A DNA stretch of 49,103 nucleotides from Thraustochytrium aureum (lineage: Eukaryota), in the NCBI GenBank assembly GCA_012862495.1, contig BLSG01000402.1, positions 1 to 49,103 on the forward strand, given 5' to 3'. Below are positions 1 through 48,672 of this stretch, in pieces. A model generated the notes under the pieces. It worked only from the letters and a program-made list of their open reading frames with translations, was not told where the DNA came from and searched no databases. Each line of letters starts with the position of its first letter. Position 1 is the first letter of the stretch. The position numbers and the translations under genes are program-made.

Positions 1-915
1 AAAGGAATCCAGCGATTTTCTCGTACTAGCTGAGCAGCAAACAGCTTTCATGAAGGGCGCCGCCGTCCAACTCGAATTCCCACCGCGCTCGAGACTGCGC
101 CGACGAAGGGCAGCAGCGACGCGCCCTGTGGACAGCGAGTCGCGAGGTGCCTACGCCACGTTCCCGAGGCCCGCCAAGCTTTGGAGAAGCGAGCTAGCTT
201 TCAGCGAGCCAGCCGGCCAGCCAGCCATCCGTTGCCGAGGTAGTCCATTGGCTGCGCGATTCAGCGTCCCGCTCGACCCAGCCCAAACGCTTGCTGCAGG
301 TTCACGTCAGGCAGCCTCGATCGCGCTTTTCGCCACACCGGGTGGCGATCCCACGTAGCTCCACAGCAAGTTCTGTGCCACAACAAACGTCCGTCCAATG
401 CGTCGCAGAAGCAAGACCATGGTCACATCATCCGTCGGGCCTTCGCGATCTTCATACCGTCGAAAACCAGTCCGGTTCGAGTGCCGAGACGCTCTTCAGC
501 TCGGTGGCGCGCAGGCGAGTCCCGGCCGTCACGGGCAGCCTGTAGCCAGAGTCATCAGGGTCTTCTCCGTCGGTAACGCGTTCACAGCATCGAGCATGCC
601 GGGCACGCGGCGCCGAACTGATTGATGGCAGCCACATTGCCTCGCAGCATCGTGTGGCTTGCTCGGCGGCGGGCTGGCGACATCGAGGAAGGCGGCCAAT
701 CTGGCGAGGTCCAGCGAGCAGTTCCCCGTTCGCAGCTCACCTGTGTCCAGCACGCAGGCCGCAGCGGAGTAGCTCTCCAACGCTGCGGGCGCCCGCGCAG
801 GGCGCAGAGGTAGGTCGGTAGGCGCTGCGCGGCCAGGATACAGTCGACGTCGAGTGCGCGCGGCGGTTTCGCTGTTGTTTAGTGCGGGAGCGGGCCGCAG
901 GGCTCTTGGAGACGC

Positions 916-3804
916 ATGGACCCTGCGGAACGTCCCGAGGCCTTCACGGCATTGCCGACCGTCGCACCGACCGTGCCGCCGACTATCTTTGTGGTGCCGG
1001 ACGATGGCGCGCTCGTGGGGATGCTGGCGTTCTACTTGAGCGTGACGGCGGCGTGCTTGGCAATGTATGGGTATTGCATGCGGCGTGGGTGGCTTCGGTG
1101 GCTGCTGGAGCCGAAAGGCACGACGAGCTTTGCGGATATTTTTAGCGGAGGGCACTTTGGCTGGGCGCAGCTGCGCGAGGCAGAGTTTGTTTCGCGGTGC
1201 GGGCTCGACGCGTACATGAGCCTGCGGAGCATCCGGCTCATGGCGAGCGCCATGCTCGGGTTCCTTGTTGTCGCTTGCGGGATTCTGCTTCCCTCGTACC
1301 GTCTCCAACCGCGCTCTGACGTTTGCAAGCAGTGGTGCTCTGGAGACCACGTGCCCAAGCAGGGCGAAGCGTTTGCAGAAGACTGCGCCTGCACGGTGGT
1401 GGACCGCTACAGCCTTGCAAACGTGGACAGCGAGTCCGCCGGCCTGTGGCTGCCCGTGCTGGCCATGGCAGGCTGCACAGCTGTCCTTTTGTTTCTCCTG
1501 CGTCGCGAATACCACGAGGTGGTGCGCATTCGAGCCGCCTACTGGCTCTCGATGCCGCCCGAGATGTTCACGGTCCTCATCGACGACATTCCGAAACATC
1601 TCGATCTGCACACTGCCGGGGGCCTCCGTGGCCACTTTGAGAGCCTCTTTCCAGGCAAGGTGGTCCGTGTCGACGCGGCCCGCTTTGTTGACGAAGAAGT
1701 GCTTTCCCAGCTGCGGCGCGCGGGAGTTGCGCGCATGGACGCGCTGGATACGTGCCTCCGCTTGCGCGCGATGCGCGACGAGTACGGCGACAGGGTACCA
1801 GCCTGCCACTCGCTGGCAGTGAATGCGTGCACCATGAGCGGGAGCCTATCATCGCGAATTGTAGATGCCGAGCTGCGCTTTGACACCCTGAACCGCACGT
1901 TCGCCGACCTTTTGCGCGCGTACAAGCGCCTCGCTGAAGACGAGAAGGAAGGCCGCATCTCCCGGCCAGTGACATCGTGCTTTGTGACCTTTTCCTCTGC
2001 CACCGTTGCTGCGATTGCTACACAGACGATAATTGAGCACCGGTTCAACGTGGTTGCTGTGCCGGGCCCTGAGCCGGACGACCTGCGCTGGGACTCGCTC
2101 GGGTTCGGGTTGCAGCGCCGAGCGTGCAGCCTCTACACGGCGCGCCTCGGATTCGCAACCCTGGTCCTCTCCTGGGGCGCCCTAGTGTCGCTTGTAGGCG
2201 CCATGACGTCCGTGGCCGCGCTTGAGGCGCGCTTTGAAACACTGCGCGACGTTCTGCGGGACAACGAGTGGCTCAGGTCGCTTATCGAGCAGGCGGCGCC
2301 GCTCGTGCTCACTGCTCTCGTGGCCGTGGTCAACCCGGTCGTCTGCCTCCTAGCTCGGATGGAGGCCCGGGCGAGCGAAGGCGACGCCGACCAGCTGGCG
2401 ACTATCTGGTACTTTGTTTTCCTGGTGATCCAGGTCTTCATCTTTTTCGGGGTCTCTGGCAGCTTGTTACGCACGATCAACACCATCTTGGACCACCCGT
2501 CGCAGATTGTCGACGTTCTCGCCTCCAACATCCCCAAGAACGCCGCCTTTTACATCCAATTCATCGTGACCAAGTTTGTCACCTCGCTCTGCGTGGACCT
2601 GTTTCGAGTTTCGGACATCGCAGTGCACGGGATCCGCAGAGTCGTTTTTGGAGCCGCTTTGACGGAGAGAGACCGCAAGGTATCGCGCTGCGGGTGCGGC
2701 GTGATCACGTTCCCCGGACACCGCAACTTGAGCTCGTTGAACGGCAACATGCTGCTTTTGTTCTTCATCGCGACGACGTACGCAGTGATCCAGCCGCTCA
2801 TAGTGCCTGCCGCGCTTGTGTTCTTCACGCTCGCCTACTTTGTCTACGCCAAGCTATTCATGTGCGCCAACATGCAGCGCTTCGATAGCGGCGGCACGCT
2901 TTGGCCGCGGACGTATTGGCTGTACGTGTCTGCGCTGCAAACGGCGCAGCTCACGCTGATCGGGCTGCTTTCGCTCAAGCGCGGCATCTCTGAGCCGTCT
3001 GCTGTTGTTTTGCTGTTTTTCGCGACGTCGTTTGTTGCGGCCCTCATCGACTTTCACTACAAACGCCTCGTTCTGGAGACGCCCTTGGACCTCGCCTCTG
3101 CCGTGGACGCGAGCATAGACGCCAGCAAGCCCGGGGTGGAGGTCCCAGCCTCTGTGTGGCGATACGGCGAGCTCTCGCGCGGCGAGCCCAACTACTTTGG
3201 CCGATACCTCGACTTTGGCGCCGCAACTTCCAAAGTGCTCGCCAGCGCCGCGCAGCGTGCCAACTACCCGGTGCGGAACGGCTCGCCTGCGCCGCAGCCG
3301 CTCACCACCAGTTTCGAGGAGCATGCCCTCCCGGACGAAACCGGCCTTGGTGCTGGGGCTGGAGATGACGCGTCGATGGCGCTTGGATGGGGCGGGCGCT
3401 CCACAGAGTCGACCCCGGGGCCCTTTTCGTCCAGGGCTTCAGATGACGGCGGCCAGGACCCCACCGCTGCGGTCCCAAGTGAAGATAGCCAGCAAGTCGC
3501 GCCCCCGCGACCTTCGCGCCCCACCAGGCCGCAAACGGGGCTCGGCCTTGCGGCAGAGCCGGGCGGCCTCGCGTGTCTCCCCCCTCAGATGCGGTCACGG
3601 CTAGTGCAGCGGTCGAGCTCGTCCTCGCTCAACTCGCTTCAGCGGGCGACCTTTGCGAGTCGCCCTTTTGAGTTTTACAGCTACGAGCTACCCGTTCTGC
3701 ACGAGGAGCCGCTTCTCGAGCGCGGCGAGCCGCGAGTGATGCTAGAGCCGTCCGATAGCGAGCAGACGGGGCTCGACGCCCCTCTTCTGGTCCAGGCGGC
3801 CTGA
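916..3804 (+). CDS. OSCA/TMEM63 (CSC1/ERD4-like) mechano/osmosensitive cation channel
   Basis: 962-aa ORF with family motifs GLDAYMSL, FTVLIDDIP, CFVTFSS, PGPEPDDLRWDSL, LASNIPKNAAFYIQFI, YAVIQPLIVP, FDSGGTLWP; many TM segments; low-complexity C-tail. Confidence 0.92.
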   Translation: MDPAERPEAFTALPTVAPTVPPTIFVVPDDGALVGMLAFYLSVTAACLAMYGYCMRRGWLRWLLEPKGTTSFADIFSGGHFGWAQLREAEFVSRCGLDAYMSLRSIRLMASAMLGFLVVACGILLPSYRLQPRSDVCKQWCSGDHVPKQGEAFAEDCACTVVDRYSLANVDSESAGLWLPVLAMAGCTAVLLFLLRREYHEVVRIRAAYWLSMPPEMFTVLIDDIPKHLDLHTAGGLRGHFESLFPGKVVRVDAARFVDEEVLSQLRRAGVARMDALDTCLRLRAMRDEYGDRVPACHSLAVNACTMSGSLSSRIVDAELRFDTLNRTFADLLRAYKRLAEDEKEGRISRPVTSCFVTFSSATVAAIATQTIIEHRFNVVAVPGPEPDDLRWDSLGFGLQRRACSLYTARLGFATLVLSWGALVSLVGAMTSVAALEARFETLRDVLRDNEWLRSLIEQAAPLVLTALVAVVNPVVCLLARMEARASEGDADQLATIWYFVFLVIQVFIFFGVSGSLLRTINTILDHPSQIVDVLASNIPKNAAFYIQFIVTKFVTSLCVDLFRVSDIAVHGIRRVVFGAALTERDRKVSRCGCGVITFPGHRNLSSLNGNMLLLFFIATTYAVIQPLIVPAALVFFTLAYFVYAKLFMCANMQRFDSGGTLWPRTYWLYVSALQTAQLTLIGLLSLKRGISEPSAVVLLFFATSFVAALIDFHYKRLVLETPLDLASAVDASIDASKPGVEVPASVWRYGELSRGEPNYFGRYLDFGAATSKVLASAAQRANYPVRNGSPAPQPLTTSFEEHALPDETGLGAGAGDDASMALGWGGRSTESTPGPFSSRASDDGGQDPTAAVPSEDSQQVAPPRPSRPTRPQTGLGLAAEPGGLACLPPQMRSRLVQRSSSSSLNSLQRATFASRPFEFYSYELPVLHEEPLLERGEPRVMLEPSDSEQTGLDAPLLVQAA

Positions 3805-21238: not shown

Positions 21239-24200
21239 TTACTCTTCCGCGGCAGCGTCAGCCGCCGCGGCTTCAGCCTCGGCCTGCGCCTTTGCGGCCG
21301 CGTCCCTCTCGCGGCGGACCTGGGCTTCTTCCATCATCAGGAGTGAGCGAAACACAAAGTCAAACCACTGCGCTTTGGAAATGCTGTGGCCCTCGAAAAC
21401 GCCCTCCACAGATTGCTCAATGTTCCACTCGGCAAGCTTGGCCGCGACCTCGTCCAACGCAACCTCAAACTCGCCCGCAGGCTTATCGAACTGGTCCCAG
21501 TACTCTTCGGCCGCCTTGCTCTCGACACGCTTGGGCTCGAATGTGTCAAACACGGCTTGGAGGTCGGCCTCCGGCGAGCCGTCCCCTGGCGTCCAACGGT
21601 CTCGGCGCAGCTGCTCGGCCTCCGCGGCCAACACCTGGGCGATCCGCGCGCGCGCTGCCTCCACAATCTCGTCGGTCGGAGCAGTGGCATCGAGCCGCTC
21701 GTACCGGTCAAGCGACTGGAACAAATCCACAACGCCAGCGTCGGCTGCCGAGATCTGCTCGCCGTCCTGGAGGTGCAAGCACAGCTTGAACGAGCCGATC
21801 TGCTTTTGCGCGGCAAAGAGCTGGTCATGCGCAAAGGGGAAGGCCCCGCCCGTGGCGCTCGGGAACCCTTCAAGCAGGAACCGCGACGCGCCCGTCGCCG
21901 TGAATCGGGAAATCGCGCGCCCCAAAACCTGAACGCTCGCCTCGAGCGGGATAGGGCGCCCGGCGTCGATGGCTTGCGCGATCGTACGGCCTGTGCGAGT
22001 GCCCCTAGCCACTTCGGCGCGAAACTCGTCGCCAGCCCTGATACGGACGAGGCCAAACTCCTGCGCGAGCGCGGCGCACAAGTCTTGGGCAACCTGGCCG
22101 CGCGGTGCCACAAGCGAGTAAAGCTCCACCGCAAACTGCTCCCGGAGGAGCTCAAGGGCAGCCGCGGACTCGTCCTCCGCGGAGGCGCGAACCGCTACAA
22201 CACTCCACGCATTGGGGCAGGCTTCCCGTGCGAGCTCACGCAGCTCGGCCTGCGCACGCTCGACCGCAGCGATCGCACCAGCGCGGGCCTCGTCGTCCTG
22301 GTCGTCCGCGTCGGCAGCAGCTGCGGCGGCGGCGGCGGCAGCAACTGCGGCAGCACTTCGCTCAAGGACGATCACGCGAGTTGCGCAGAGGCCGCGCGAG
22401 AGAAGCTCGCGCTCGCCGTCGCAGTTGATGAGAATCAAGCCCCTGTCCCCGGCCGAGGCCGTGGCTCGCCTGATCATGCTGGCCTTGGCGAACAGCAGGT
22501 CCGCCAGCGCCTGGTCCGCCTCGGGGGTTGGGACCTGCTTGTCGACTGCAGCGGCGCGCAGCACCGCCCGCGCTTCCCAGGTCCCGGCGCATCGCGGGAG
22601 CGCCGCCAAGGCGGCGCCAAAGTCGAGGACGCGGAACCCTTGCTCGCCGGCCAGGGTCTCGAGCACGGCCTTGTCGCCAGCCTGAGCGCCGAGGCACACG
22701 ACGAGCTCGCTCCGGAGAGCGTCCACTTCGGCCTTGCCGACACGCAAAAGACCCTCAAGGCCCATGTGGTACTGCACGCGGCTCGTGGGGTCGCGGCTTG
22801 CTCAAGGAGCGTTGCGCGAGGCCGAGCTCCCAGCGTCTCGATGAGCTGGTGCGCCTCGTCGTGGTCGCCGGGAAGGCCGTGGACCAAGAACGGCTCTGGC
22901 CCTGGGACAAAGTACTGCGCCTCGCTGATCGACACCTGCACAGTCTCTGGCGAAGTGGCCGCCGCCTCGCTGAACACGTAGCACGGTTCGAGGCGGATCT
23001 GGCTCTGCGCAATCGTCTGGTCCACGCTGAGCCCGACCGCCTCGACAACGCCAAGCCGGCCCACAGACGCGAGATAGTCTGCCAGTGCGCTTCGCGGCTC
23101 GCTCGCGCTCGCACACAAATGCACCGCTCGCCGGATGGGGCCCACAGCGGACTCGAGCTTCGCGCACTCGTCAGGCGTCGACGGAAACATGACCAGGACA
23201 AAGCTCCTCCCACCGACGGCCTCGATGCGGCGCTCGATCAGCTCTATGACGACCTCCGTGGGAACCTTTTGTCCGCGGCTCTTGATTTCGCGGATGCGCT
23301 GGCCAAGCGGGCTGCCAGTGCGCGCTTCGAGCTCAACGAGAGCCGGGCCGTCCAAAACCATGTGCGTCTTGCGCGCCTCGAGCTGCGCGGCCACAGCGCA
23401 GGCGTGCTTGGCGTCCTGGCCAAGGAGCAGGACAAGCTCCGGCTCAAAGTGCTCGAGGACGCGCTGGAAGATCTGCTCGGGGGTGGCGTCACTGGAGCTT
23501 GCGTGCACAGTGCGGAGTTTGCCGCGCTGCTCAAAGTGCTTAATAACGGGGAGAGAGCGCTCCTGGAACGTCGCGAGGCGCTTGGTCACGATCTCCTCCT
23601 CGTCGTCGGCGCGCATTCGCTTGGCGAGTCGCTCGCGCGCGACCTCAAAGTCGACGGAGAGGTTGAGGACGAAGGTCGGCTGGCCCACGACGGACTCGAA
23701 TGTGCCGACCTGATCCATGTCGCGCGGAAAGCCGTCCACGAGGACGCACTCGGCCGAGCTCTTGCGGATCGCCTTGTTAAGAAGCCGCACAGTGGTGTCC
23801 GTGTCCACGAGACCGCCAGCCTGCATTTGCTTCATGATCTCGAGGCCCTCCTCGGACTTGAGCTCCACCTCCTGCCGAAGCAAGTCCCCAGTAGAGATGT
23901 GGTCGTACCCAAAGCGCGCAGCGAGCCGCATGCACTGTGTGCCCTTGCCGCTCCCAGGTGCGCCTAGAACAAAGACGATGCGCTTGCTGGGCTGCGTGGC
24001 GCTGCTGCTGCGCCTCGGCAAGACCGCGGCCGTGCTCGCCGGCGCGGCAGGCGGGATCGCGCCGGCCCGAGCAGGCCGCTTGCGCGTCGCGAGCCACTCG
24101 CGGCCGCGCTCTGCCGCCTCGCGGTCCGGGTTGTTCGTCAGGAGCCACTCGCCAAGCTGGCGCACGGCGTCGAGGCCCGCGGGCTTGACCTTGCAAAGCT

Positions 24201-25324
24201 CACTGAGCCCCGACACCACGACGGACTGGACGAGCTGCGCTTCCGAGCCCTCCGACCCGCGCGTTTCGGCCTTGCGGATGAACGACTTGGCGGAGGAGGC
24301 GTCCAGCTCGGCGGCGCGGTCCAGGCCCGGGAAAAGCCAGGCAAAGTCGGGTGAGGCGTACAGGTCGAGTGCCGGGTACTGGCTCACCATGAGGTGGCAC
24401 GTCTCCTCGGCGCCGGCCTTGGCGATGACAAGCGCGAATGCTGTTTCGCATCTCCGGCTGATCGCCACGATGTCCTTCGAGTAGATCTGCCGCTTAGCCA
24501 GCACCGCGAATCCGTACTTGGTGACAAGCTGCTCGACCCCTCGAGCCTGAGCGAGGTCGAACGCGACCAGGAGCATGCGCTGGATGGGCAGAGCCTTGAA
24601 CCAGTGCTGGACCGCGGCGTCGGCTGCCTCCGAGCTCGGGCTCGTGTATACGATGGCGCCGTCGGCGTCACCGAGGCGGTAGGCGGCGCTCACGGCGCCG
24701 CGCCCCTCAACGACGAGGACAACCGGGCTCTCGGTGGCTGCGAGCGTCGGGTATGCCACGGAGGCTTCCTCGCCGGAGACCTCGCGCTGGGCGACTATGC
24801 AGAGCCCGGCGGCAGCCAGCTCCCCCGTCACTTGTGCGAGGACCGCCTGCTCAGCAGCGACCACAACAGAGCGCTCCCATTTCTCAGTTGTGTTCGGGAA
24901 GAAGAACTCGAGCTCACGGGCCGCAGCGAGCTCCGAGGTGGAGCCTCGCGCGCCAGACCGCACGCCCGTGGCCCCAAACGCGCCGTGCAGGCTCCACCGC
25001 TCGATCTCCCTCCCGAACGCCTCCCGATCGAGCTCGCGCGCCTCCTCCGGGTCGGTGGGGCCGAGCAGGGCGAGCAGGTCGTCGACCGCTTGGGCCTTGC
25101 GCAGGCGGAGCGCGACTACGGGACCGCTAGTCAAGTAGTCCACGACGTCCTCCGAAGCGGCAGCCCCGCCCGCAGCGAGGTACCTCGCCGCCTGCGCGCG
25201 AGTGAGCACGCAGCGCTCTTGGCGGACGACCTCAAACCCTGCGCCTTCGATGCGCGCCACCATCTCGCGCGCCTTGTCCTTGGACATCACCTTGGTAACC
25301 TCCTGGGCGATCTCCTCGCCGCTT
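21239..25324 (-). CDS. Multidomain NDK-like + Dpy-30 + adenylate/UMP-CMP kinase protein with additional degenerate AK repeats (5' end in gap; frame break near 22788)
   Basis: NDK fold: IEGAGFEVV..YLTSGPVVAL..LLGPTDP..AARELEFFF; Dpy-30: GLSELCKVKP..AVRQLGEWLLTNNP; AK: IVFVLGAPGSGKGTQC..HISTGDLLRQEV..LVDGFPR; later partial AK repeats (GDEFRAEV..FLLEGFP). Confidence 0.85.
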
Positions 25325-26323
25325 NNNNNNNNNNNNNNNNNNNNNNNNNNNNNNNNNNNNNNNNNNNNNNNNNNNNNNNNNNNNNNNNNNNNNNNNNNNN
25401 NNNNNNNNNNNNNNNNNNNNNNNNNNNNNNNNNNNNNNNNNNNNNNNNNNNNNNNNNNNNNNNNNNNNNNNNNNNNNNNNNNNNNNNNNNNNNNNNNNNN
25501 NNNNNNNNNNNNNNNNNNNNNNNNNNNNNNNNNNNNNNNNNNNNNNNNNNNNNNNNNNNNNNNNNNNNNNNNNNNNNNNNNNNNNNNNNNNNNNNNNNNN
25601 NNNNNNNNNNNNNNNNNNNNNNNNNNNNNNNNNNNNNNNNNNNNNNNNNNNNNNNNNNNNNNNNNNNNNNNNNNNNNNNNNNNNNNNNNNNNNNNNNNNN
25701 NNNNNNNNNNNNNNNNNNNNNNNNNNNNNNNNNNNNNNNNNNNNNNNNNNNNNNNNNNNNNNNNNNNNNNNNNNNNNNNNNNNNNNNNNNNNNNNNNNNN
25801 NNNNNNNNNNNNNNNNNNNNNNNNNNNNNNNNNNNNNNNNNNNNNNNNNNNNNNNNNNNNNNNNNNNNNNNNNNNNNNNNNNNNNNNNNNNNNNNNNNNN
25901 NNNNNNNNNNNNNNNNNNNNNNNNNNNNNNNNNNNNNNNNNNNNNNNNNNNNNNNNNNNNNNNNNNNNNNNNNNNNNNNNNNNNNNNNNNNNNNNNNNNN
26001 NNNNNNNNNNNNNNNNNNNNNNNNNNNNNNNNNNNNNNNNNNNNNNNNNNNNNNNNNNNNNNNNNNNNNNNNNNNNNNNNNNNNNNNNNNNNNNNNNNNN
26101 NNNNNNNNNNNNNNNNNNNNNNNNNNNNNNNNNNNNNNNNNNNNNNNNNNNNNNNNNNNNNNNNNNNNNNNNNNNNNNNNNNNNNNNNNNNNNNNNNNNN
26201 NNNNNNNNNNNNNNNNAGCAGCAGCAGCAGCAGCAGCAGTCGAAGCGCGAGCGGTGGCGACGGCGTGGGTGTTTTTGCGTAGGCGAGAGCGAGCGCGAGA
26301 GGGTGAGGATTTTTGCAGCGAAG

Positions 26324-26650
26324 ATGCTTCGGGCCGTGAGCATGCTGGGCGGGCGCGCGGCGCGCGTGCAGGGCGCTGGACTGGCGGCGCGCACGCACCG
26401 TGCTGGCGCGGCGCAGCAGGCGAGGACCTTTGCGTCGACCAGCTCGGTGTACAACACGGTGTTGAGCTCCAACGCGCGGTATGTGTTGTTTATTGTGGCG
26501 GGGGCTGCTGTGGGCGAGGTCATGTTTGGTGCTATCGGCGACACCGTGTGGCGCTTGAACAACCGCGGCAAGCTGTACGAGGACATTGACTGGAGCAAGT
26601 GGGAGTCGCTCTACGTGGCTGAGGAGGAGGAGGCGGAGGACGACGAGTAG
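26324..26650 (+). CDS. QCR9: Cytochrome bc1 complex subunit 9 (QCR9/UQCR10)
   Basis: VYNTVL..YVLFIVAGA..E..GDTVWRLNNRGKLYEDI matches the QCR9 core; single TM. Confidence 0.85.
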   Translation: MLRAVSMLGGRAARVQGAGLAARTHRAGAAQQARTFASTSSVYNTVLSSNARYVLFIVAGAAVGEVMFGAIGDTVWRLNNRGKLYEDIDWSKWESLYVAEEEEAEDDE

Positions 26651-32932: not shown

Positions 32933-33574
32933 TCACGCAGCAGCTTGGCTCGCGCCCGCGGCAGCCTTGAGGGCGCCTGCCTCCGAAAGCTGCATCGCTG
33001 AACGGCCCGCTTCACCCGCTGGCACAGCCTTGGAAGCCTCCGAGCCCTCTGAGAGTGGCCCAGCACCTGAGAATGAGCCGTTGTCAAGTTGGCGCGCGAC
33101 CTCGCCCTCCACGTCGGGCGGCAGCCAACCCTCCGGTTTGATAATTTTCCCGTCCGCACGCTTGATGAACTCGCCGGTTGCAGGGTCTCGCTTGTTCATG
33201 TTTGCCTCATGGACCACCGCGAACAGCGCGCTAAGGTTGACACCATGACGTGCGGCGCTGTTGAGCGAGTAATAGTACGAGTCAACGAGAGCGTCAGCTT
33301 GGTCAGCAATCTTTTGCACGAGGCCAGCACGCGTGCTCTCGTCATATTCGCCCTGCGGGATGTCCTTGCTGCCGTCAATGAATGCCTTTAGCGCTGCCTT
33401 GGACTCGTCCGGACCAGCCACCGTGGCCGTGAACTCCATGATCTCGTCGAGCATCATCTTGGCCAAGAAAAACACCTGCTCCTTCGACATGACCTCGGGG
33501 CGCTCAGGGGTGCGCTGTCCCGCGCCGCTCGTAAACTCGCGCACCATCTCCGCGTCGCTCCGCTGGTTGGCCAT
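32933..33574 (-). CDS. MazG-like / PRA-PH superfamily all-alpha NTP pyrophosphohydrolase (DR2231-like)
   Basis: MVREF..MLDEIME..DQADALVDSYYY..HGVNLSALFAVVHEANMNK..RADGKIIKPEGWLPPD. Confidence 0.85.
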   Translation of the reverse strand: MANQRSDAEMVREFTSGAGQRTPERPEVMSKEQVFFLAKMMLDEIMEFTATVAGPDESKAALKAFIDGSKDIPQGEYDESTRAGLVQKIADQADALVDSYYYSLNSAARHGVNLSALFAVVHEANMNKRDPATGEFIKRADGKIIKPEGWLPPDVEGEVARQLDNGSFSGAGPLSEGSEASKAVPAGEAGRSAMQLSEAGALKAAAGASQAAA

Positions 33575-33839: not shown

Positions 33840-36800
33840 TCAGCCCGAATCTGTTAGCGATTTTCTGCCGTCGCGCTCCACGTGCAGCTTCGATCGGCGT
33901 TGCCGGTGCAACTCGGCCAGCATAGCTTTGAACGAGTCGTGCTGCATGAAGCGGCTTAGGCTGTCGCGCTCTAACGATCGAAGGATCTTGTCTTGCGCAT
34001 CGTCGAAGAGCGTCGGAGCGCCACCTCTACTGTTGTCGAGGACGCGCTGGCGCGTGTCGTGGTCCAGGTTGACCTCGCGTGGCGCACCGGGCTTTACGAA
34101 CTTGTTTATGAGCGTGGTAGCCTTCTTGACGCGCATTGCCTCGCCCTGGTTGCTGCTCCGCCGGTACGCGTCGACAGCGAGCACAAAATCGAGCCCCTCC
34201 TCGCCGTGCTCGAGCTTCAGAAAGTCAGAAAAGTGCTTCGCTGCGAGCGAGTTGGACAACATCTCCCGCAGGCTGTAAAACGTGCCTCCGATCTTGGGTT
34301 GCATCTTGACGAGCTTGGTGTACACTGACCGGGTGCACTGCCACGTCTCGCACACGGTCAAGCACCGAATGGTTTCTTTCGCCACAGACCCCACCTCCCG
34401 GTTGCTCAGCAGCAAGCCCGCGTCGCAGAGCTCGACGCACCGCTCGCGCTCGCCAGCATTGTCGAGGGCAGCCAGCGCCTTGAGCTGCGACATGTTTTTG
34501 GCCGTAAAACTCTGGAGGACCGAAGGCCGCGCGTTGTCCTGGAAACGCGTCGGCGCTTGCAGGTACACCTGAACGCGGCCTTTGAGGAGGAAGACGAGGC
34601 GGTCGATGCGCTCCCCCGCAGAAAACAGCACATCACCGGGCACGTGTATCACAGGGGACACGTTGGTCACCAAAGTGCGCAGCATCCCAGGATTGAAGTA
34701 CAAGAGCTGCGCACAGCTCTCGGGCGACTTTCCCATCGACCTGTGCAAGACGAGCCCGACCAATTGGTCCCGCAAAAACGAGTTGAGATGCGCCAGCACG
34801 GCGCTCTCCTCAACCGCTTTGCCCTCCTTGAGCTTAAAGTCATAGTACTTGGACACCGCGTCCTGGAGACTGGGCGAGAGCTTCGCAGACTGCGCAAATG
34901 CCATTGCTGCCTCCCGCATTCGGTTCCCCATGGCCCTCGTCGAGTCCTCAATGTCGATGATGCTCACCAGAGTAGACGTGATTCCTGCATCGCACAAAAA
35001 CGCGCCGACTATCATCACGACCATGGCGAAAATCTGCTCCAATGGCCCCTGGATCGCCACGTTGCCGTAACCGACGGTCGTCATCGTGTAGAGGGTCAAG
35101 TAGATGCTGTCGACGTACATCACGTCAAAGTTTGCCGTGGGCTGCTCCCGTGTGCCCGCAAGCACAAGCATGTGCGAGCAGGCGAGCCAGTGGGACGTCA
35201 GCAACACCCCAAACACGATCTTGGTCAGGTGTCGAAACCCGCTCTTCACGTTGAGCTGATTGCTCGACTCAACCGCGGTGTCTGCGATGGACCAGTACTC
35301 CCCCATGTGTCTCAGCCATGCCAACCGCAGTACTCGGACCATGTTGGCATCGTGCAGGCCAAGCGCTTCCTGGTTCGGGGTGAGGTCGCCAGAGGCTAGC
35401 ACGACCGCGAGCACAAGATCCACCGGAAGCGCAGAAATAATGTCAAGAATGCCTGACGCGCTCCGCAGGTAAGCCCGGCGAATGTGTTCAGAGCGCCGAA
35501 GCAACACACCGTTCTTCACCGACGAAATCACTGTCGCAGAGAGCCCGACGTGAACCCAGAGGAAAAGGTCAAAGGCAACATTGAGCGCCAGCGCCCGTCG
35601 CGCGAAGCGCACGTAGTCGGTTTGTTCTTCGTCTGGGCGCGACGCGTTGTACGCGCTCACGAGCAGAGGGACAAGCACACAGTTAAACGTGGTCACGACA
35701 AAGACGAGCATGTGCCACACAGTGTACGCTGTCGTCGCCGGGTAGATGATGTACTGGTCGAGCCCGCCTGCGACCTCGTCGTTCCCCGTGTTCTGGGCGC
35801 CTTGCAACATTTTGTTCAATTTGCTGTTGTCGAGGTTTTTGCGCAACTGTTCCAAAACGCTCGGATGGGCAAGAAACTGGTCCAGTTCCCGAAGGAAAGG
35901 CGCGCAAAGGTGCGGGTTGGCACGAAGGCAGTCGACAACGTCGTCCCGGGACAAGCGCGCGAGCTTGCACTCTCCCTGCGTCCGGGCTGTAGCGTAGTAG
36001 CCAGTCTTGAGGCGAAAGAATCCATCCTGGCCAAAAACAGCCCCGCACCCGATGGTTGCAAACACCGTCGTCAGGTCTCGGGACACGAGGTCCACGCTCC
36101 CATCCAAAACAAAGTACAGGTATGTGGCGTCCTGTCCATTCTCGAACACGGTGTCTTGGCTTGGAACAGTAACTTGCTCGATGACTGGCACGATGTAGCG
36201 CCATATACCGCTGGGGCCAATCACGGGCGCCTTTGAGAGGCTTGACTCGTTCAGGACTTCGAGCAGCAGCTCACCGCGAAGGCCCTCGTTCAAAAACCCA
36301 AGGATCTCGTTCTCGTCGACGGCTTTCTGTGTCATCCAGAGGTGCAGCGTGTACTGCTTGATGCGCGAACGCATCTGAGCAGGCAGTTTGCGCATCGACA
36401 TGTACGTCGTCATACGGTCCGACTTTTCTTGGTAGAGGATGGATGTCAGGTCGGCTTGCGCCACGATATCCTCTACGAAGGCGATGATGATAGAGTACAA
36501 GACACCACCCACCACTAAAAGGACGATTGTGTAGGCTCTCTCGCTCTGAGCAGCCGGTGTGACGTCGCCGTACCCAACGCCAGTTACTGTTGTCACTGCA
36601 AAGTAAAGAGCAATGATGTAGTGGTCAAACCATCGCGCCTCCTCCTGGGCAAACTTCACCTCGGAAGTCGCCTCGTCAAAGTGCAGCAGATTATGCACCA
36701 CTGCCCACGACGTGCCGGACTCCACGTTCCGCGCTCCGATAAAATAGAACAGGCACCCGGCCCAGTGAGCCACCAGCAACAGCATGAACACGAGTTTGAT

Positions 36801-39800
36801 GATCGTCACAATACTCTTGCGGTTCTGGTTCGTGGTGCCGCGCCCGATCGCAGAGATGTGGTGCACAAACCGCACACCCCGAAAAAGCTTGTTGAATCGC
36901 AGCGCCGACAAGGTGCGCGTGGAAAATGGCGCGGGTGCAGGTGACGCAGCAAGAACAATTGCGCCAAAAATGTCAAGCGGAACCACACTGAGCACGTCGC
37001 AGACACCAAAAAGGGAGCCCAGGTAGTATCGCGGGATGAGCCGCGGCCTGTTGATGCGGTGGCCGGTCGTCGTTTCGATTTCAAAGTGGCGCAGTCTCAG
37101 CAAGAGGTCGACGACGAGAAGCGCATCAAGGAAGTAATCGATGCCGAAGGTCCACTGCTCGGGACCCGAACGAACCGAAAACGACACTCGAATCGGGAAC
37201 GAGATAAAGTTCCAGAGCAGGCAGAGGAACATGAGATGGTCCCAGTAGACCTGGACGAGACTGTCCACCTCCCATATCCGGCGTTGCGAGCGGAAACCGC
37301 CGCCCTGAGCTTGGAGGCTCTCTTCGCCGCCCGCCATCTTTAACAGCTTACCCCCCTTGCGCAAGTTTTGCACCACCAGAGCATCGGCCTGCGCGTGACG
37401 GTAGAGCTCGATGTACCTTTTTCGTAGGGCCTCGCCTTCCCCAGGAAAGAGAGCGCACGCTTGCAGAACTGCGCGGCGCTCAATCACCCACACCTCAGAC
37501 ATTGAAGTCGAGATGTACTCGAGGGAAGGTGGAGCCCAATTTGTTGCAAACCCTCCGACGGGCAAGTCGAGCTGCAACGAGCTCTCGTTAAAGGCGGATC
37601 CTTCCAAAACGTTGCCCAATGCAGCGGTAGTACCAGGCGCGCGTTCTTGCACATTCCCGTTGCGCAGCAAAAACAGCTGTGCAGGGCAGCACATTGGGGT
37701 GATGAAGACGTGGCCCGAGTGCAGAACTTTGAGTTCAACGTTAGAACAGAGCTCGCGTAGGAACCTTTCAGAGATGCCCCCAAACAGCTTGCTCTGTCGC
37801 AAAAGAGGGGCAACCTGTTCTGCAAGGAGGATCGTTCTCTCCGCCGCCCCGACAAACTCGGACTCGCGAGGCACGAACGCCATGATTGGGCTCACATCGG
37901 TTATCATGTCCTCGAAGCACACTGGCCGGGCTTTTTGCTCCGCAATAGACCGCTTTTGACGCACCTGCGCTGCGAGCCGTTCATCTTCGGCCGAGATCTC
38001 CAAGCTTGAGCGCTGATCATCATGTGGTTGTCTCGATGCCATAGTCTGGCCCAACGTAGGGCTGGTAGACTTTGTCGGCGTTGCTTGAATCGCTGCTGCG
38101 GAATCTGCCAAGATTTCTGCTGGCTCTGGCGCGTGCGAAGAATTTTCGATAGGTGCGAGCCGTTGCTGGGTTGCGCGCGCTCCCCAACCAGCTTGGGAAG
38201 CAGCGCCGATTCCCGAGGCCGAAAACAGAAATACCTCGTGAGCCTCCCGAAAAGCCTGTTTGGTGGAACCTGCCTTCTTCAGGACCGAGTGGGTCTCCAA
38301 CCCAAGAACGCGGACTCGGGCAAGCAAGTCGCTCGTCTCCATGTATTCGAGGTAGTGCCAGACCCGCGTCTGCGCGGCCGAAGAAACCTCCCGGTCGATC
38401 AAGTAGCCTGTCAAGCAGTTTCGGAAATGTGTCACGTTGAGAGGGGAGAGCTCGACATCTTTCAGAAATGTGCCGACCAAGGAGACGAGAATCGAGTACA
38501 CCGCGACGCCGAGGACAGCGATGACGCAAGTTGAAAGGGAGTCTGTCCCCGTGACTGGCACTTGGTCCCCAAAGCCAACCGTTGTCATCGTCGTCAAAGC
38601 CCAGTAAAGCCCAAGGACATATTTGTCGCCAAAGGCGTGCGTCTCATCTTGAACAAGTGTCATGCCGAAGCACGCAATCCAATGCACACACATAACAAAG
38701 TAGATGCCGAGCTTGGACGACAAATACCGCGACTCGATGTCGTGCGCAGTTAGGGTTTCTCTCCTGCTCCTGGCATTGCGAAGCCACTTGTTTCTGTGCC
38801 TCGTGAGCAGCTCGAAGAGCTCGAAAACCATGAACGTGCGCAGCATGAACGGAGCGCGGAGGATGACCGAAATCCGCTGAGCGCCCACAAGCCGAGCAGG
38901 GTCGTCTCCAAACGCGGTCTCCGCGTGTATAAGAAAGGCTAGCGAGCCCAGCGAGACCGCGACGAGCGCAGATTCAAAAAGGACGCGCAAAGCAGACAGT
39001 CGCTTACGCCAAATTCGGTTCCTTCGCTCTTGGTTTTCCTTCGCCACAACCTTTTCGATCAAGGAAAAGTCGTGCGTCGCCGTGCCGTGGCGCGCCTTGA
39101 AGAACTGCGATTGGTTGGCCGTCAGGTTGTCCACGCTCGCCCTGTCCGAAGAATTCCTCCGTTGAGCAGACCCGTGCCGGACAAGTTCTGGCTTGAGGAA
39201 GCGGTTGAGGAGGACGAAGACGTCGCCAACGAGGTCCAGAACGGAGAGGGCAAGGCTCGAGCTCAATAGGAGCGGCGAACTTAGCGAGACAAAGCGCAGT
39301 GGGATCACGAACGAGTTGTACAAGATCACGGCCATGACAAAAGCGTCCCAAGTGATCTCTGCGAGGCCACCGGGCTCCATTGTGCAGCAGCGCCGACGAC
39401 TTGCTTTGTCCATCATGCTCGTCTCCGTACGCCTGAGCCGCTTGAGCTTGTCCATGCGCTGTTGCTGCACAAGCTCAGTGCTTACACGTTTTGCGGTTTT
39501 GTTGCTGCTCGTGGTGATTTCACTTTCGACGTCAAGGCGAATGCGATCATCGATCTGAGCGCAGTTCGTTTCAGAGCCCAAAACAGCGCAGACGGAGTCC
39601 ATCCCCCATTCTGGAAAAAGGAGCCCCATTTTCCGGAAGAGACTCTGATCCACAACGAGTACCTCGCAATGGGACACTGCGCGGTACATCGCCGTTGGAA
39701 GATCTGTGGCGCCGAAAAAGTACCCCGCCCCACGAGCTGGCCGGGCGATAGCAGCGGCAAGAAGCGAGCATGGTGCTCCAAAATTTGCGGCTCTGCAAGG

Positions 39801-41617
39801 CGCTCCTGAAGGTCATCCGACAAAGACTCGGTTGCCGAGCCGGACCGACGAAAAGACGAAGCCCGAAAGAACACTGCCTCACCTGCGCTGATTTGTCTCA
39901 CAAGGGACTGTACGACACTCGTCGACTTGCCTGTCGCTTTAGCATTCAAGCTGGGTGACGTACTGCTGCTCGTCGCGTCTGTCTCCGCCCTCGCTTCGGT
40001 AAGGACGGAAGGAGCCTTGTCCTCTTCACCCGCAGCTGCGCTTTGGTCGTTGACTGAGGCATCGCTCACAGGGACAACCTTGGCTCGGTTACGGTTTTTG
40101 GGCGATTCGACGAGAACTGCGTTGAGTCGGTTTGCAATCGAGCGAACATGGCTGCGCGAGGCTTCTTCTGCCGATGGTCCAGACGATTGCGGCACAATTC
40201 TTTGAGCGGTCCCAGACAACATGATTAAGATGCGGGGCTCCTCGACTTCGCTCGCCGAGAACTCGGGCTGGATTATGCTCCCAGAGACAAACCGCGCTGT
40301 CTCACCATGCTCAAGGGCGAAAAATGCTGCGGGCCGAAACACCTTGTCAGGCTTGTCGTGTCGGCGGAAAAAGTGCGCCCCAGAAAGGAGCTCGAGCTGC
40401 GCCTCCAAGATGTTGTTGACCATACTCCGAGGAAGGTCGGCAAGCAGGCGCCTGCGCGTTACTCCCTTTTGGTCTTGCCACATCCGACGAAGGCCGCGAC
40501 GAACTTGGTTCCTCGTCTTGACTTGAGCCTTTATGATGCCCATGACGCGCTCAACAAACTCCACGTTTGAGCGGTGCGCCGCAGAGGTGGCGTCCATGTT
40601 GAACAGGTATGACGTCATGTTGGCCAGCATATTGGCCATAACAAAGACCCCGACAAGCGAGAGAAGTGCGGCGAATATGCGCTCTGTCCAGTAGAACGGG
40701 GCTACATCCCCGTATCCAACTGTTAGCAGCGTCTGGAAAACAAAGTACACCGAGCGAGCGTATCGCAGACCCGCGGGGGAGAGTGAGTCGCTAGCCACAC
40801 GGGGTGACGTGGTGTTGCGCAGGTCGTCGCCGTCAATCCAGCCTTGACCCAGCTCGGCACGCCAGCCGAGGATAAAGTAGCCCCCGCCAGCAAGGTTTTG
40901 AATGACGAGCACTGTTCCAAACAGCCATCCAAGGCGGACGAGTTGTACTGGGGGCTCAGCCACGGCCCATGAAATGGCCTTTTGTATGGACTTGCCATAC
41001 TGCATATACACCGTCGGTATCCTTGTGTAGATGGCCATTACGGCAATGGACACGGCAGTAGGCGAGCCGCCACAGAGACTAACCAACGCCCCCCACGGAA
41101 CGATGGCGCCGAGCGTGGCGGGCAAGAGAGCTTGGCGGATTTTTTTCCTCCACGGAGAGCCACTCACCTCCCAGTGGAAGTCGGCGGCAAAAACGAGCGA
41201 GACCAGAACGTCGCTGATCAACACCGTTTGGAGCGTAGAGCTTGGGCCTAACCGGCTGGAAGAGTTATCCTCGAGCCCAAAGAAGACACAGTACAGCGGG
41301 TATATGAATGCACAGTACAGAATGACAACCGCGCACAATACTTCGAACCAGACTCGCGCAGAGATGCGACGGCTCAGTAGTCCCGCCGTCAGCCCTGCTG
41401 TGCTTTGCCCGGTCAACTTATATGAGCCCTCAGCGCCGTTCAGACTACTTGTTGCTCGCCCATCTTTGGTCTCGTTGGGTTCGTTTGCCCCAACGCTGGC
41501 GTTGTTGAGTTGTAGGACGCCTTCTGTCTTCCAGACGATCTGTTTCATCTGCCCAAGGGGAATGCCTTCATACTCGGCCTCAGGCGCGCCAGACTTGCGC
41601 CCAAACAGCCTACTCAT
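33840..41617 (-). CDS. Four-repeat CNBD-family K+ channel (CNGK/tetraKCNG-like) with C-terminal RGS domain; frame break or intron at ~39720-39880
   Basis: Four TM-pore-C-linker-CNBD modules with filters TVGYGD (~40710), TVGFGD (~38570), GVGYGD (~36570), TVGYGN (~35065); RGS motifs HFSDFLKLEHGEEGLDFVLAVDAYR..INKFVKPGAPREVNLD..LFDDAQ..LERDSLSRF. Confidence 0.9.
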
Positions 41618-46485: not shown

Positions 46486-48081
46486 CTATGAGTCGCCCTC
46501 GGGGCTAACAGATTCCGCGTCCGCCTCCTCCGCCGCCTCACTCTCCTTCGGCCCACGTGGAGCCAGCGTGTGGTTTGGGAAGAGGATCTTGTGCTCGTTC
46601 AGCTGCGAGAAACCAAACTTGCCCTGGAAGGTGACGAGGATGCTGCCGCGCGGCGGTGTGTCCTCGGGCGAGATGGTCACCCACAGGTCGGGCAGCGCAT
46701 TTTTGAGGTTGACGCGCTGGCGCGAGATAGTCTTGGAAAACGTCGAGTGCAAGCTGCCGACAAAGTGCTTGGCGCGAACACACACGAGCTGCTCCACAAG
46801 GCCGAAGAGATCAAAGCGAACGGCGTCGCTGCGCAAGCCCTTGTGAAAGCGCAGCAGCCACTTTTGGATGGCCTCATTCTTAGCGAGGTCGCCCTGGAAG
46901 ACGATCTTGTGGAAAAACTTGCGCGCAGGCTTGAAGTAGCGGTCGCGCGGGTCGCCGTCCGTAGCGAGGTAGACTGGGGTCTCGGCGTCAAAGCCGGTTC
47001 CCCGCGCCTTGCGGAGGAAGACGGCCGCGTTGTGACTGGACTGGCCAAGCTTCTTTAGCTTGTCCCCGGTCCGCACGTGGATCGCGTTGAAGGGCACGCC
47101 CTCGCCGAAAAGCTCGTCCGAAATAGCACGGGAAAAGGCTCGCAAAAAGGGAGCGAAGCGGACCTGGCGACGCAAATTGGGCTCTTCCCACCGGTGCGTG
47201 AAAAACCGGCCGTGGATCCACAAGACCTCCTTGTCGCTCCCTTGCAGGCGAGCGTAGATTTCCTTGTGGTAAGTGAGGGAACCCTTGGTGAGCCCATCTT
47301 CATTGAGGTGAACGAGGTCCACTCGCGCGGACTTGAGCTGCACCTTGAACTTGTTGGGCTCATTGAGCGGCTCGCCCAAAACGTCGGCCACAAAAGAGCG
47401 AATTGTGACGTTGAGAGGCACCATGGCCACGCCGCTGGCAGACTCCATGTACTGGAGATCGAGGGACTGGTCCATTGGCACAAGCTCCTCCTGCGTCAGG
47501 TTGTAGTACCGCCAGTAAAAGTTGCGATGGCGCCCGTTCTGTGGAACAATCAACGTGCGGTTGAACTCGCGCGCGAGCTTCATTGCCGTCAAAAGGCAGA
47601 TCAGCTGGTTGTTGAAGCCTCCGCTCGGGGTGTAAAGAAAGTACCGTTGTCCAGGCACGATGACGTTGTACTCGCGCTCGCTGGACCGCGGGAGAGCCGG
47701 CGGGCCAGCCGTGTCCCGAGACGAGAGGAGCTCAAAGTCGGCAAGCTTTGCAAGCTCTTTAAATACGGCCTCGCCTGTTGGCCCATCGTCTGAAGAAGTC
47801 CCCGCGATCAAGACCTGTGCCAGCGCGAACGCAGCATCCACGGGACCGGTCGCCTCGAGAAGCTCCAGATCGCTCCTCAGCACAAGGAAGACCATCACAA
47901 CTATCATCACAATACCAGCAAGGCGGCGCTTTGGCTCCCAGAGTTCAAAGGGGTCCCTCGCCTCGGGCGGCGCCATCGTGATCGAAGCCTTGTCTGGAGA
48001 GGGCGGCGCGCTGACGTCTAGTCGGGAGTACGCCGTGCCACCGATTGAAGAGGGAGACCCGGTGGTGCTTCCGTTTCTCAT
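46486..48081 (-). CDS. Type II membrane GDP-fucose O-fucosyltransferase-like glycosyltransferase
   Basis: N-terminal TM (LAGIVMIVVMVFLVL), SGGFNNQL, FNAIHVRTGD, VYLATD, VEQLVCVRAKHFVGSLHSTFS. Confidence 0.85.
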   Translation of the reverse strand: MRNGSTTGSPSSIGGTAYSRLDVSAPPSPDKASITMAPPEARDPFELWEPKRRLAGIVMIVVMVFLVLRSDLELLEATGPVDAAFALAQVLIAGTSSDDGPTGEAVFKELAKLADFELLSSRDTAGPPALPRSSEREYNVIVPGQRYFLYTPSGGFNNQLICLLTAMKLAREFNRTLIVPQNGRHRNFYWRYYNLTQEELVPMDQSLDLQYMESASGVAMVPLNVTIRSFVADVLGEPLNEPNKFKVQLKSARVDLVHLNEDGLTKGSLTYHKEIYARLQGSDKEVLWIHGRFFTHRWEEPNLRRQVRFAPFLRAFSRAISDELFGEGVPFNAIHVRTGDKLKKLGQSSHNAAVFLRKARGTGFDAETPVYLATDGDPRDRYFKPARKFFHKIVFQGDLAKNEAIQKWLLRFHKGLRSDAVRFDLFGLVEQLVCVRAKHFVGSLHSTFSKTISRQRVNLKNALPDLWVTISPEDTPPRGSILVTFQGKFGFSQLNEHKILFPNHTLAPRGPKESEAAEEADAESVSPEGDS

Positions 48082-48672
48082 GACAGCCTCTGCGACCTTG
48101 TCCAAGCAAGCCCCAGGAATTGTGAGCCGACCGACCGACCAAGCCCCTCCTGGTCGCCAGTCTCACGTCGCTCGCGTTTTCGAGACAAGTCCTGAGGCAC
48201 GGTAGGGCAGGGCAAGGCGGGAAGCAGCTCACACGGCCGTCCGTCACCGTCACGCAGCCAAAGAAAGCTCTCTAGCTAGCTGGAGAGACAGTCGATGAGA
48301 AAAGCTCGGCTCGCCGCCTGGCGTTGCGCCCGCCCAGGCCGCGAGAGAGCAAAGCGGTCCGCAGTCCAGCGCGCGGCAGGACTGGGCTTCCGGGCTCCAA
48401 CTTTGTCCTGGGCGCGTGAGGACGCAGGTCCGTTCGCACTGCGCGAGCCGGGAAGCCAAGGCGGCTCTGTCGTGCTTGTCGGGAGGCAGTCAGGTCAACT
48501 TGGGGAACAAGTAAGGCAGCGACCTCCGATAGCGCGGTAGAAAACAAAAGGGCTTGCGAGCATGCAGTTGTTCCACAATTACCCCGACGAGCTCGGAAGT
48601 AAGTGTGGACGGACAGTGGAGCCGACTCTGCTTGGCGCTCGATGCCTTCGGTGCACCCCGAGTCCCCGGCGC

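Follow-up and report, generated by a model that had tools for sequence, protein, structure and literature searches.

The closest described relatives of the architecture reported here are potassium channels of the CNGK (tetraKCNG) type from sea urchin, zebrafish and choanoflagellates, which, in the available portions of PMC4749565 and PMC7576140, are single chains of four 6TM-C-linker-CNBD repeats with G(Y/F)G filters, the sea-urchin channel being opened by cGMP at CNBD3. CNGK proteins have been reported only from Metazoa and choanoflagellates, and tandem channels were not found in labyrinthulomycetes (PMC7576140). KCNH (EAG/hERG) channels have a CNBD fold without the phosphate-binding Arg and, in the part of PMC5806680 available, show no gating by cyclic nucleotides. 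Each subunit has one repeat and an N-terminal PAS (eag) domain, with an intrinsic-ligand strand following the C-helix, and the channels assemble as tetramers.

To our knowledge, CNBD channels respond to cyclic nucleotides, voltage or pH, and where direct G-protein gating of K+ channels is established, it works through Gβγ. GIRK (Kir3) channels have a 2TM fold, are opened by Gβγ, and rely on RGS domains in separate proteins. p115RhoGEF and PDZ-RhoGEF, with their rgRGS domains, and the Entamoeba RGS-RhoGEF each combine a Gα sensor with a GAP. In plants and protists, too, 7TM-RGS proteins and further membrane fusions tether an RGS domain to a multi-pass membrane module, as the accessible text of PMC3971589 describes. 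The architecture list in the accessible part of its supplement contains cNMP_binding//RGS and no Ion_trans//RGS, the paper's table of transmembrane counts reaches 15, and its sampling includes no labyrinthulomycete.

We analysed a 49,103-nucleotide stretch of Thraustochytrium aureum DNA (the window) that contains a gene resembling each of these systems in part. It has the CNGK layout, but CNGK proteins carry no RGS domain and here one is fused; moreover, all of its cassettes are degenerate and CNBD4 lacks a C-helix. KCNH channels rank high among the matches by sequence and by fold, whereas this protein has four fused repeats, no PAS match in a Pfam profile search, and an RGS domain where the last C-helix would be. 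As in the RGS-RhoGEFs, whose structures (1iap, 3cx6 and 4gou) are among the fold matches, an RGS-type domain and an output domain share one chain; their output is a Rho GEF, here it is an ion pore. As with GIRK, the combination suggests a G-protein-controlled K+ conductance timed by RGS. A literature search that covered all but one key survey returned no description of a four-repeat channel-RGS architecture, in agreement with the earlier note on this DNA, which knew of no CNGK-RGS fusion.

Gene layout and the break in repeat 1

All of the channel and RGS coding sequence lies on the minus strand, from 41617 to 33840, and the gene is nearly intron-free. ORF1 runs from an ATG at 41617 to a stop at 39482 and carries repeat 1. 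ORF2, in a different frame as the earlier note had implied, spans 39812-33840 and has 1990 stop-free codons (chance ~1e-31 at this composition), with its stop codon at 33840-33842. Profile searches and alignment resolve four repeats, each with a 6TM region, K+ filter, C-linker and CNBD, followed by one RGS domain. The earlier note had foreseen profile matches to four Ion_trans, four cNMP_binding and one RGS domain. Ion_trans was indeed found once in ORF1 (E 3.2e-10) and in three stretches of ORF2, where the single RGS match (PF00615) also lies, and cNMP_binding matched two stretches of ORF2.

The four channel modules with K+ filters claimed in that note are all present. The transmembrane region of repeat 1 (S1-S6) occupies 40583-41356 on the minus strand with the filter TVGYG at 40723; those of repeats 2, 3 and 4, on the same strand, lie at 38439-39341 (TVGFG at 38582), 36444-37256 (GVGYG at 36581) and 34944-35696 (TVGYG at 35078). 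Each has a G(Y/F)G potassium filter, and the pore helices and filters are conserved in all four. In repeat 3, the best conserved repeat, Gly replaces the Thr before Val-Gly-Tyr-Gly, a position that varies across the family. Selectivity cannot be read from the filter motif alone (PMC7576140); the pore is presumed to pass K+. In S4, repeat 1 is charge-poor, with two R/K in a 21-residue segment picked by eye, and repeats 2, 3 and 4 have three, five and three, respectively.

The C-linker and CNBD1 (40582-39549, minus strand) contain a long low-complexity insertion and span the point where the frame changes. A gap-free alignment to two intact homologues, P0001 and P0002, across the switch places a one-base deficit in a G-rich stretch at 39722-39740 (minus strand). 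This model scored 506 against the two homologues; among 668 GT/GC-AG intron models, the top one reached 437. A canonical-looking 77-nt GT-AG intron (39882-39806) that would join ORF1 to ORF2 scored 383 and was rejected because its excision removes residues matching both homologues. A programmed -1 frameshift was also rejected: a slippery site of the canonical X-XXY-YYZ form was not seen by eye, and the reading frame runs uninterrupted in the homologues.

The break is likely an assembly indel and possibly a true frameshift. If it were real, this copy would be a young pseudogene, or would make a 711-aa repeat-1 protein and a separately started protein with repeats 2-4 and the RGS domain. The break does stand in the sequence as given, and in-frame ATGs occur in ORF2 at 39689-39413, ahead of repeat 2. 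Nevertheless, we consider this reading improbable. It is the sole break within 7.8 kb, in a G-rich stretch of a gapped assembly (seven N runs in the window), and conservation to P0001 is equal on both sides (44% in repeat 1, 35-46% in repeats 2-4). The break also cuts CNBD1 in mid-domain, all six full-length relatives are continuous there, and a three-repeat chain alone could not make a four-fold pore. In this copy the complete four-repeat and RGS chain is obtained only across the one-base break; because CNBD1 straddles it, the single chain is observed in homologues, and for this copy we infer one of about 2590 residues.

That single chain, which the earlier note proposed, exists in six intact database proteins of 2030-2736 aa with four pores and an RGS domain, one of them encoded at the DNA level as a single ORF on contig L001. 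The named partial relatives are thraustochytrids. The RGS-bearing four-repeat proteins cluster, with support of 100/100 for a core of five and 76.8/82 for all seven (support splits recomputed on 30/60 rows). Proteins of the sister clade (P0008, P0010, P0012 and P0014) have a C2 domain at about the place of the RGS domain, which indicates that the end of repeat 4 tolerates varied add-ons. The word-based protein searches were insensitive: a repeat-3 query gave five matches without P0001 or P0002 among them, and a second search missed P0007, P0011 and P0028 although they were in range. Foldseek gave channel matches only, among the matches listed; no protein named CNGK appeared among the sequence-search matches, most of which are unnamed. 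A metagenome scan with the T. aureum protein produced 68 pattern matches and no relatives. The window and contigs L001-L003 share no neighbours, since only two of 205 window ORFs matched, both of them the channel ORFs. As far as the text and four supplementary files of an A. limacinum zoospore proteome (PMC12221091) were available, they mention neither RGS nor G proteins.

CNBD cassettes and the junction with the RGS domain

None of the CNBDs in the T. aureum protein or its four closest full-length relatives (P0001-P0004) has the G-E...R phosphate-binding motif. In CNBD1 and in CNBD4 (C-linker and β-roll at 34943-34299, minus strand, with a degenerate cassette and ending at helix B without a C-helix), its absence was judged from the alignment by eye. 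CNBD2 (37811-37419, minus strand) reads N-E without the Arg. CNBD3 (36443-35874 with its C-linker, minus strand) reads G-Q...Y, with Gln for the cassette Glu and a Tyr aligned to HCN1 Arg549, a residue that contacts the phosphate of the ligand in the available text of PMC5806680. With Tyr in place of the phosphate-binding Arg in CNBD3, some other input would be needed. Because no CNBD in these five proteins keeps the motif, gating by cyclic nucleotides is unlikely. The CNGK label of the earlier note thus fits the layout and probably misfits the gating, the cyclic-nucleotide-binding residues being gone. A G-E...R-like motif is present in the first CNBD of two distant members, P0022 and P0048, and the motif itself in 28 of 53 four-pore proteins without RGS, none of them from the sister clade. 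Cassette loss is common to the RGS-less sister proteins and so predates the RGS fusion and does not require it.

In repeats 1-3 of the alignment, channel sequence continues past helix B and its Pro, where the C-helix belongs. Repeat 4 instead passes from helix B directly into the RGS domain, which takes the place of the gating C-helix. The junction is a short conserved hinge of the Pro-x-Ile-Gly-Gly-x-Phe type (34301-34275, minus strand), located by alignment and in a predicted CNBD4-RGS model, that leads from helix B into RGS helix 1. Along this model, CNBD structural matches run out at residue ~312-320, and those to RGS domains set in at 313-318. The hinge is predicted to be ordered (pLDDT ~87), and its Gly is invariant in 15/15 and 16/16 aligned rows. 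The model as a whole has a pTM of only 0.68, which counts against taking rigid packing of the two domains as established. According to the accessible portion of PMC5806680, rotation of the B- and C-helices couples ligand to gating in HCN and CNG channels, and the C-helix sets efficacy.

The RGS domain and its Gα-contact residues

The RGS box that the earlier note placed at about 33920-34274, in frame with repeats 2-4, corresponds to a PF00615 match at 34274-33924 on the minus strand (ORF2 residues 1847-1963, E 9.7e-21, 74.8 bits against a cut-off of 23.9). Its nearest solved sequences are canonical R4 proteins, namely RGS8, RGS5, RGS1, RGS16 and RGS4 (E 1e-16 to 4e-14), compared to E 4e-4 for the non-GAP SNX13. 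The predicted model superimposes on RGS4 from the Gi-alpha1 complex 1agr with a Z of 17.8 and an rmsd of 1.1 Å over 116 residues. The domain is conserved to the same extent as the channel parts (42% compared to 34-51% identity to P0001).

Numbered after RGS4, by way of the RGS4 match (12-124 against 61-171) and an alignment with RGS8, the T. aureum domain retains equivalents of E83, E87, N128, D163 and R167, while His stands for Y84, Gly for S85 and N88, and Ser for L159. We take E83, S85, E87, N88, L159 and R167 to be contact positions in RGS4, where N88 and L159 are presumably important. In the available part of PMC11259961, N128 and D163 are essential to the GAP activity of RGS4 and Y84 is critical for binding. 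Both N128 and D163 are kept in six of 14 family members, including the T. aureum protein and its nearest relative P0001; one or the other is missing in the remaining eight. In five members (P0005, P0006, P0009, P0022 and P0048), of which P0005 and P0048 are the two named thraustochytrid proteins, 0-2 of nine contact positions remain while the channel part is still conserved. P0176 has an aberrant tail in which the last contact positions are not scorable.

Possible roles of the RGS domain

With the RGS domain in the C-helix position and the nucleotide-binding residues lost, the likely controller is a G protein and not cAMP or cGMP. The explanation that we tentatively put first is a four-repeat channel gated by activated Gα, which its RGS domain would also switch off, giving a Gα sensor with a built-in timer. 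Gα-GTP or its transition state would bind the RGS domain and, in the manner of the ligand-driven B/C-helix rotation in HCN and CNG channels, move the C-linker and helix B of repeat 4. This movement would alter the open probability, by opening or closing the pore, while the same RGS domain accelerates GTP hydrolysis, so that each G-protein pulse might yield a brief shift of the membrane potential that ends by itself. Still more tentatively, we propose an undescribed family of directly Gα-gated K+ channels in labyrinthulomycete-type protists, with the RGS domain as GAP timer and no second messenger. The earlier suggestion of effector and GAP in one polypeptide gains from the replacement of the CNBD4 C-helix by the RGS domain, but it is weakened because Gα-contact residues are eroded in about half of the relatives. 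A part in zoospore chemotaxis, the example offered in that note, stays conjectural; the one relevant observation is that relatives occur in thraustochytrids. Moreover, zebrafish CNGK is pH-gated without any fused domain, according to the available part of PMC4749565, which counts against a need for Gα gating.

If true, a CNBD channel with an RGS domain for its gating helix would be a new G-protein-to-voltage coupling with the timer built in, and would let receptors act on membrane voltage with no second messenger in between. It could also serve as a natural template for engineered Gα-sensitive channels. The proposal is directly testable because it concerns a single gene with next to no introns and with relatives in culturable thraustochytrids.

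It is unlikely, in our estimate, that the RGS domain is a working GAP for which the channel is a membrane anchor or an upstream sensor of voltage, K+ or pH that exposes or hides it and in this way, as in 7TM-RGS receptors, adjusts how long the G-protein signal lasts. Information would then flow from channel to G protein, or not between the parts at all. RGS-transmembrane fusions occur in most lineages, often independently, in the accessible text of PMC3971589. A linkage that carries force from the RGS domain to the gate could also work in reverse, and the S4 of repeat 3 retains its five basic residues. On the other hand, a passive anchor needs no short hinge with an invariant Gly at the C-helix position, and the pore helices and filters, conserved in all four repeats, speak for an output in the form of ion conduction.

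A non-GAP structural or scaffolding role for the RGS fold, comparable to SNX13/25, axin and GRK2, is doubtful. The domain would fix the state of CNBD4 or bind another partner, and gating would fall to voltage, pH or an unidentified ligand. The loss of contact residues described above and the C2 domain in the sister clade are in keeping with such a role, and RGS domains that have lost GAP activity are on record in the available portions of PMC3971589 and PMC11259961. However, the T. aureum domain is much nearer canonical R4 proteins than SNX13. It and those of P0001, P0007, P0028 and P0160 all keep equivalents of E87, N128, D163 and R167 despite far divergence (over the RGS domain, 42% identity to P0001 and 24% to P0160), a pattern not easily explained unless a Gα-type partner was selected for in those lineages. 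Even a purely structural RGS domain would leave four-repeat CNBD channels extending beyond animals and choanoflagellates, into a group with none in the published survey.

That the protein is a genuine CNGK orthologue, gated by cyclic nucleotides and extended by an RGS tail, is very improbable: its four 6TM-CNBD repeats, each with a G(Y/F)G filter, follow the CNGK layout, and P0022 and P0048 retain their G-E...R-like motif, but the motif is absent from the T. aureum protein and P0001-P0004, the Gln and Tyr lie in CNBD3, the active site of sea-urchin CNGK (both layout and site as in the available part of PMC4749565), and the CNGK pairing of repeats 1 with 3 and 2 with 4 (PMC7576140) is only half seen. 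Within the RGS clade, the mean BLOSUM score is highest for repeats 1 and 3 (0.83), followed by 2 and 3 (0.76) and 3 and 4 (0.73), and lowest for 2 and 4 (0.57).

A four-repeat channel gene with an RGS domain

The channel-RGS gene occupies two overlapping ORFs on the minus strand. ORF1, which starts at an ATG at 41617, encodes repeat 1, while ORF2 (39812-33840) encodes three further Ion_trans repeats together with cNMP_binding domains. Its RGS domain spans residues 1847-1963 (window 34274-33924; E 9.7e-21). ORF2 is stop-free over 1990 codons, which has a chance probability of about 1e-31. The K+ filters of repeats 1-4 are, in order, TVGYG, TVGFG, GVGYG and TVGYG. The domain scan thus bears out the four channel modules and RGS box that the earlier note had read from the sequence.

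A search with the C-terminal region yielded two matches among 7990 candidates scored, the database proteins P0001 (2736 aa) and P0002 (2450 aa), each covering ORF1 and ORF2 with four pores and an RGS. For a representative search, the best 150 of 3798 matches were used. A local screen of 152 proteins (these 150, P0001 and the query) found four pores in 59, six of which carry an RGS, query counted. Six relatives (P0001-P0004, P0160 and P0176) each have, by Pfam, four Ion_trans_2 stretches and an RGS, and the P0003 gene is one ORF on its contig (L001, 4059-10598) and therefore not a gene-calling fusion; the claimed single-chain architecture thus holds outside the window. P0022 also has four pores, its RGS being detected by the local profile only. 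Partial members are P0005, P0006, P0007, P0009, P0011, P0028 and P0048. P0005, a Mucochytrium quahogii transcriptome protein, contains pore 4, CNBD4 and an RGS-like part scoring under the Pfam cut-off; P0048 (Hondaea fermentalgiana GBG26762.1) has potassium channel AKT2 as its sole annotation. UniRef lists at least two of the members under generic names. We conclude that the channel-RGS fusion family is real and conserved. A tree built from 30 of 60 rows of pore and C-linker segments gives support of 100/100 to the five core members and 76.8/82 to all seven RGS-bearing rows, making a single fusion event plausible, not firm.

P0002 (CAK8988552.1) and P0022 (CAK8985757.1) are labeled Durusdinium trenchii. 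Their contigs, 9.4 and 10.2 kb long, are almost taken up by the 2450 and 2681 codons, so the genes look intron-poor. Typical dinoflagellate genes are not, and both proteins probably come from a co-sequenced protist. Taken with P0005 and P0048, these named members suggest a labyrinthulomycete-type host.

The accessible part of PMC7576140 places four-repeat CNBD channels in Metazoa and choanoflagellates only, gives labyrinthulomycetes no tandem channels and does not mention RGS. Likewise, the RGS architecture list in the accessible part of PMC3971589 has no Ion_trans//RGS entry and no labyrinthulomycete. No fusion of an RGS with a channel, CNGK included, was described in the literature searched, in keeping with the earlier note; because most subscription journals lie outside that search, the family is probably, not certainly, new.

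Position and putative Gα contacts of the RGS

In repeats 1-3, helix B and a proline are followed by sequence continuing into the C-helix position. In repeat 4 they are followed by a hinge of about nine residues, with a glycine invariant in both alignments, and RGS helix 1 comes directly after. Two predicted models (pLDDT 77 and 85; pTM 0.52 and 0.68) run from beta-roll through helix B and hinge into the RGS, with no C-helix. CNBD structure matches stop near residue 312-320, and RGS matches begin at 313-318; RGS4 matches the predicted RGS with Z 17.8 and rmsd 1.1 Å. Because the RGS follows helix B directly, in place of the C-helix, it occupies in these models the point where conformational input reaches the gating ring.

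The solved sequences nearest to the query RGS are canonical R4 RGS proteins. In RGS4 numbering, E83, E87, N128, D163 and R167 are kept and Y84, S85, N88 and L159 are changed. As far as the accessible parts of the sources go, RGS4 N128 touches Gα (PMC7572916), GAP activity requires N128 and D163, and Y84 is needed for binding (PMC11259961). Since N128 and D163 are both kept in six of 14 family members, yet five retain at most two of the nine contact positions (both named thraustochytrid proteins, P0005 and P0048, among them), the family seems to hold likely Gα-binding as well as degenerate RGS domains. By its residues, the query appears to be of the likely Gα-binding type.

Our leading, still tentative proposal, each step of which we infer, is that activated Gα gates the channel through the RGS. 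Activated Gα would bind the RGS, and in repeat 4 the docked subunit would shift helix B and the C-linker, altering gating; the RGS would then accelerate GTP hydrolysis and terminate the signal. Two alternatives, equal in weight, are each less probable: that the RGS is a channel-anchored or channel-controlled GAP, or that it is a structural module with no GAP role. In the gating proposal, the query would behave as a CNBD channel that takes a putative G-protein input, and the structural link is specific and testable. A role in zoospores is speculation that draws on the host group.

The frame break and the CNBDs

We scored every possible switch point between ORF1 and ORF2 against two intact relatives. 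The switch falls at 39722-39740, mid-CNBD1, where a G-rich stretch lacks one base and the alignment crosses without gaps. This one-base-deficit model scores 506, and none of 668 intron models exceeds 437; a 77-nt GT-AG intron (39882-39806) that would join the frames fits the homologues poorly (383 versus 506). Because this is the sole break in 7.8 kb, identity to P0001 is similar on both sides (44% versus 35-46%) and the window contains seven N gaps, the break is very likely an assembly indel, and the repaired gene would encode 2592 aa. The same break could mark this copy as a pseudogene, a question separate from mechanism, although the even conservation makes that improbable.

According to the accessible part of PMC5806680, HCN1 Arg549 contacts the cyclic phosphate, and KCNH channels lacking that Arg do not bind nucleotides. 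The phosphate-binding G-E...R motif is absent from every aligned CNBD of the query and P0001-P0004; CNBD1 and the CNBD4 cassette fell outside the profile alignment and were assessed by eye. CNBD3, the query's best-conserved CNBD, has G-Q...Y versus G-E...R in LliK and HCN1. Across 13 family proteins, the Arg occurs in three of 19 informative CNBD rows (P0022, P0048 and, doubtfully, P0160). In a control set of 53 RGS-less four-pore proteins, 28 have G-E...R, a partly circular comparison, as the motif seeded the profile. Judged by these residues, the query CNBDs are probably not nucleotide sensors. Sea-urchin CNGK acts via CNBD3 and zebrafish CNGK is gated by pH (PMC4749565, accessible part). 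With the cassette residues lost, the CNGK label given earlier fits the layout of four repeats with CNBDs, but probably not nucleotide gating. The query is not demonstrable as a CNGK member, and that it is a true CNGK is very improbable despite the shared layout.

Related channels and neighboring genes

Four K+-type pores without RGS occur in 53 of 151 proteins examined (among the best 150 of 3798 matches plus P0001), and four-repeat CNBD channels seem to range far beyond the Metazoa and choanoflagellates published for them, although most matches carry no taxon label. P0008, P0010, P0012 and P0014 form a sister group of four-repeat K+-filter channels in which a C2 domain, in place of an RGS, lies inside CNBD4 or directly behind it. 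These are four of the nine RGS-less relatives put through Pfam, and the group is a candidate counterpart regulated by Ca2+ or lipid. The local profile also finds tandem RGS-like domains in P0103, P0088 and P0069 (about 16, 5 and 4).

The downstream neighbor of the channel-RGS gene encodes a 213-aa PRA-PH (MazG-like nucleotide pyrophosphohydrolase) protein (32933-33574, minus strand). Elsewhere in the window are an RSN1/TMEM63-type channel (883-3801, plus), an O-fucosyltransferase-family gene (46489-48162, minus) and a nucleoside diphosphate kinase plus adenylate kinase ORF interrupted by an N gap (22477-26610, minus); proteins combining these two kinases are often flagellar.
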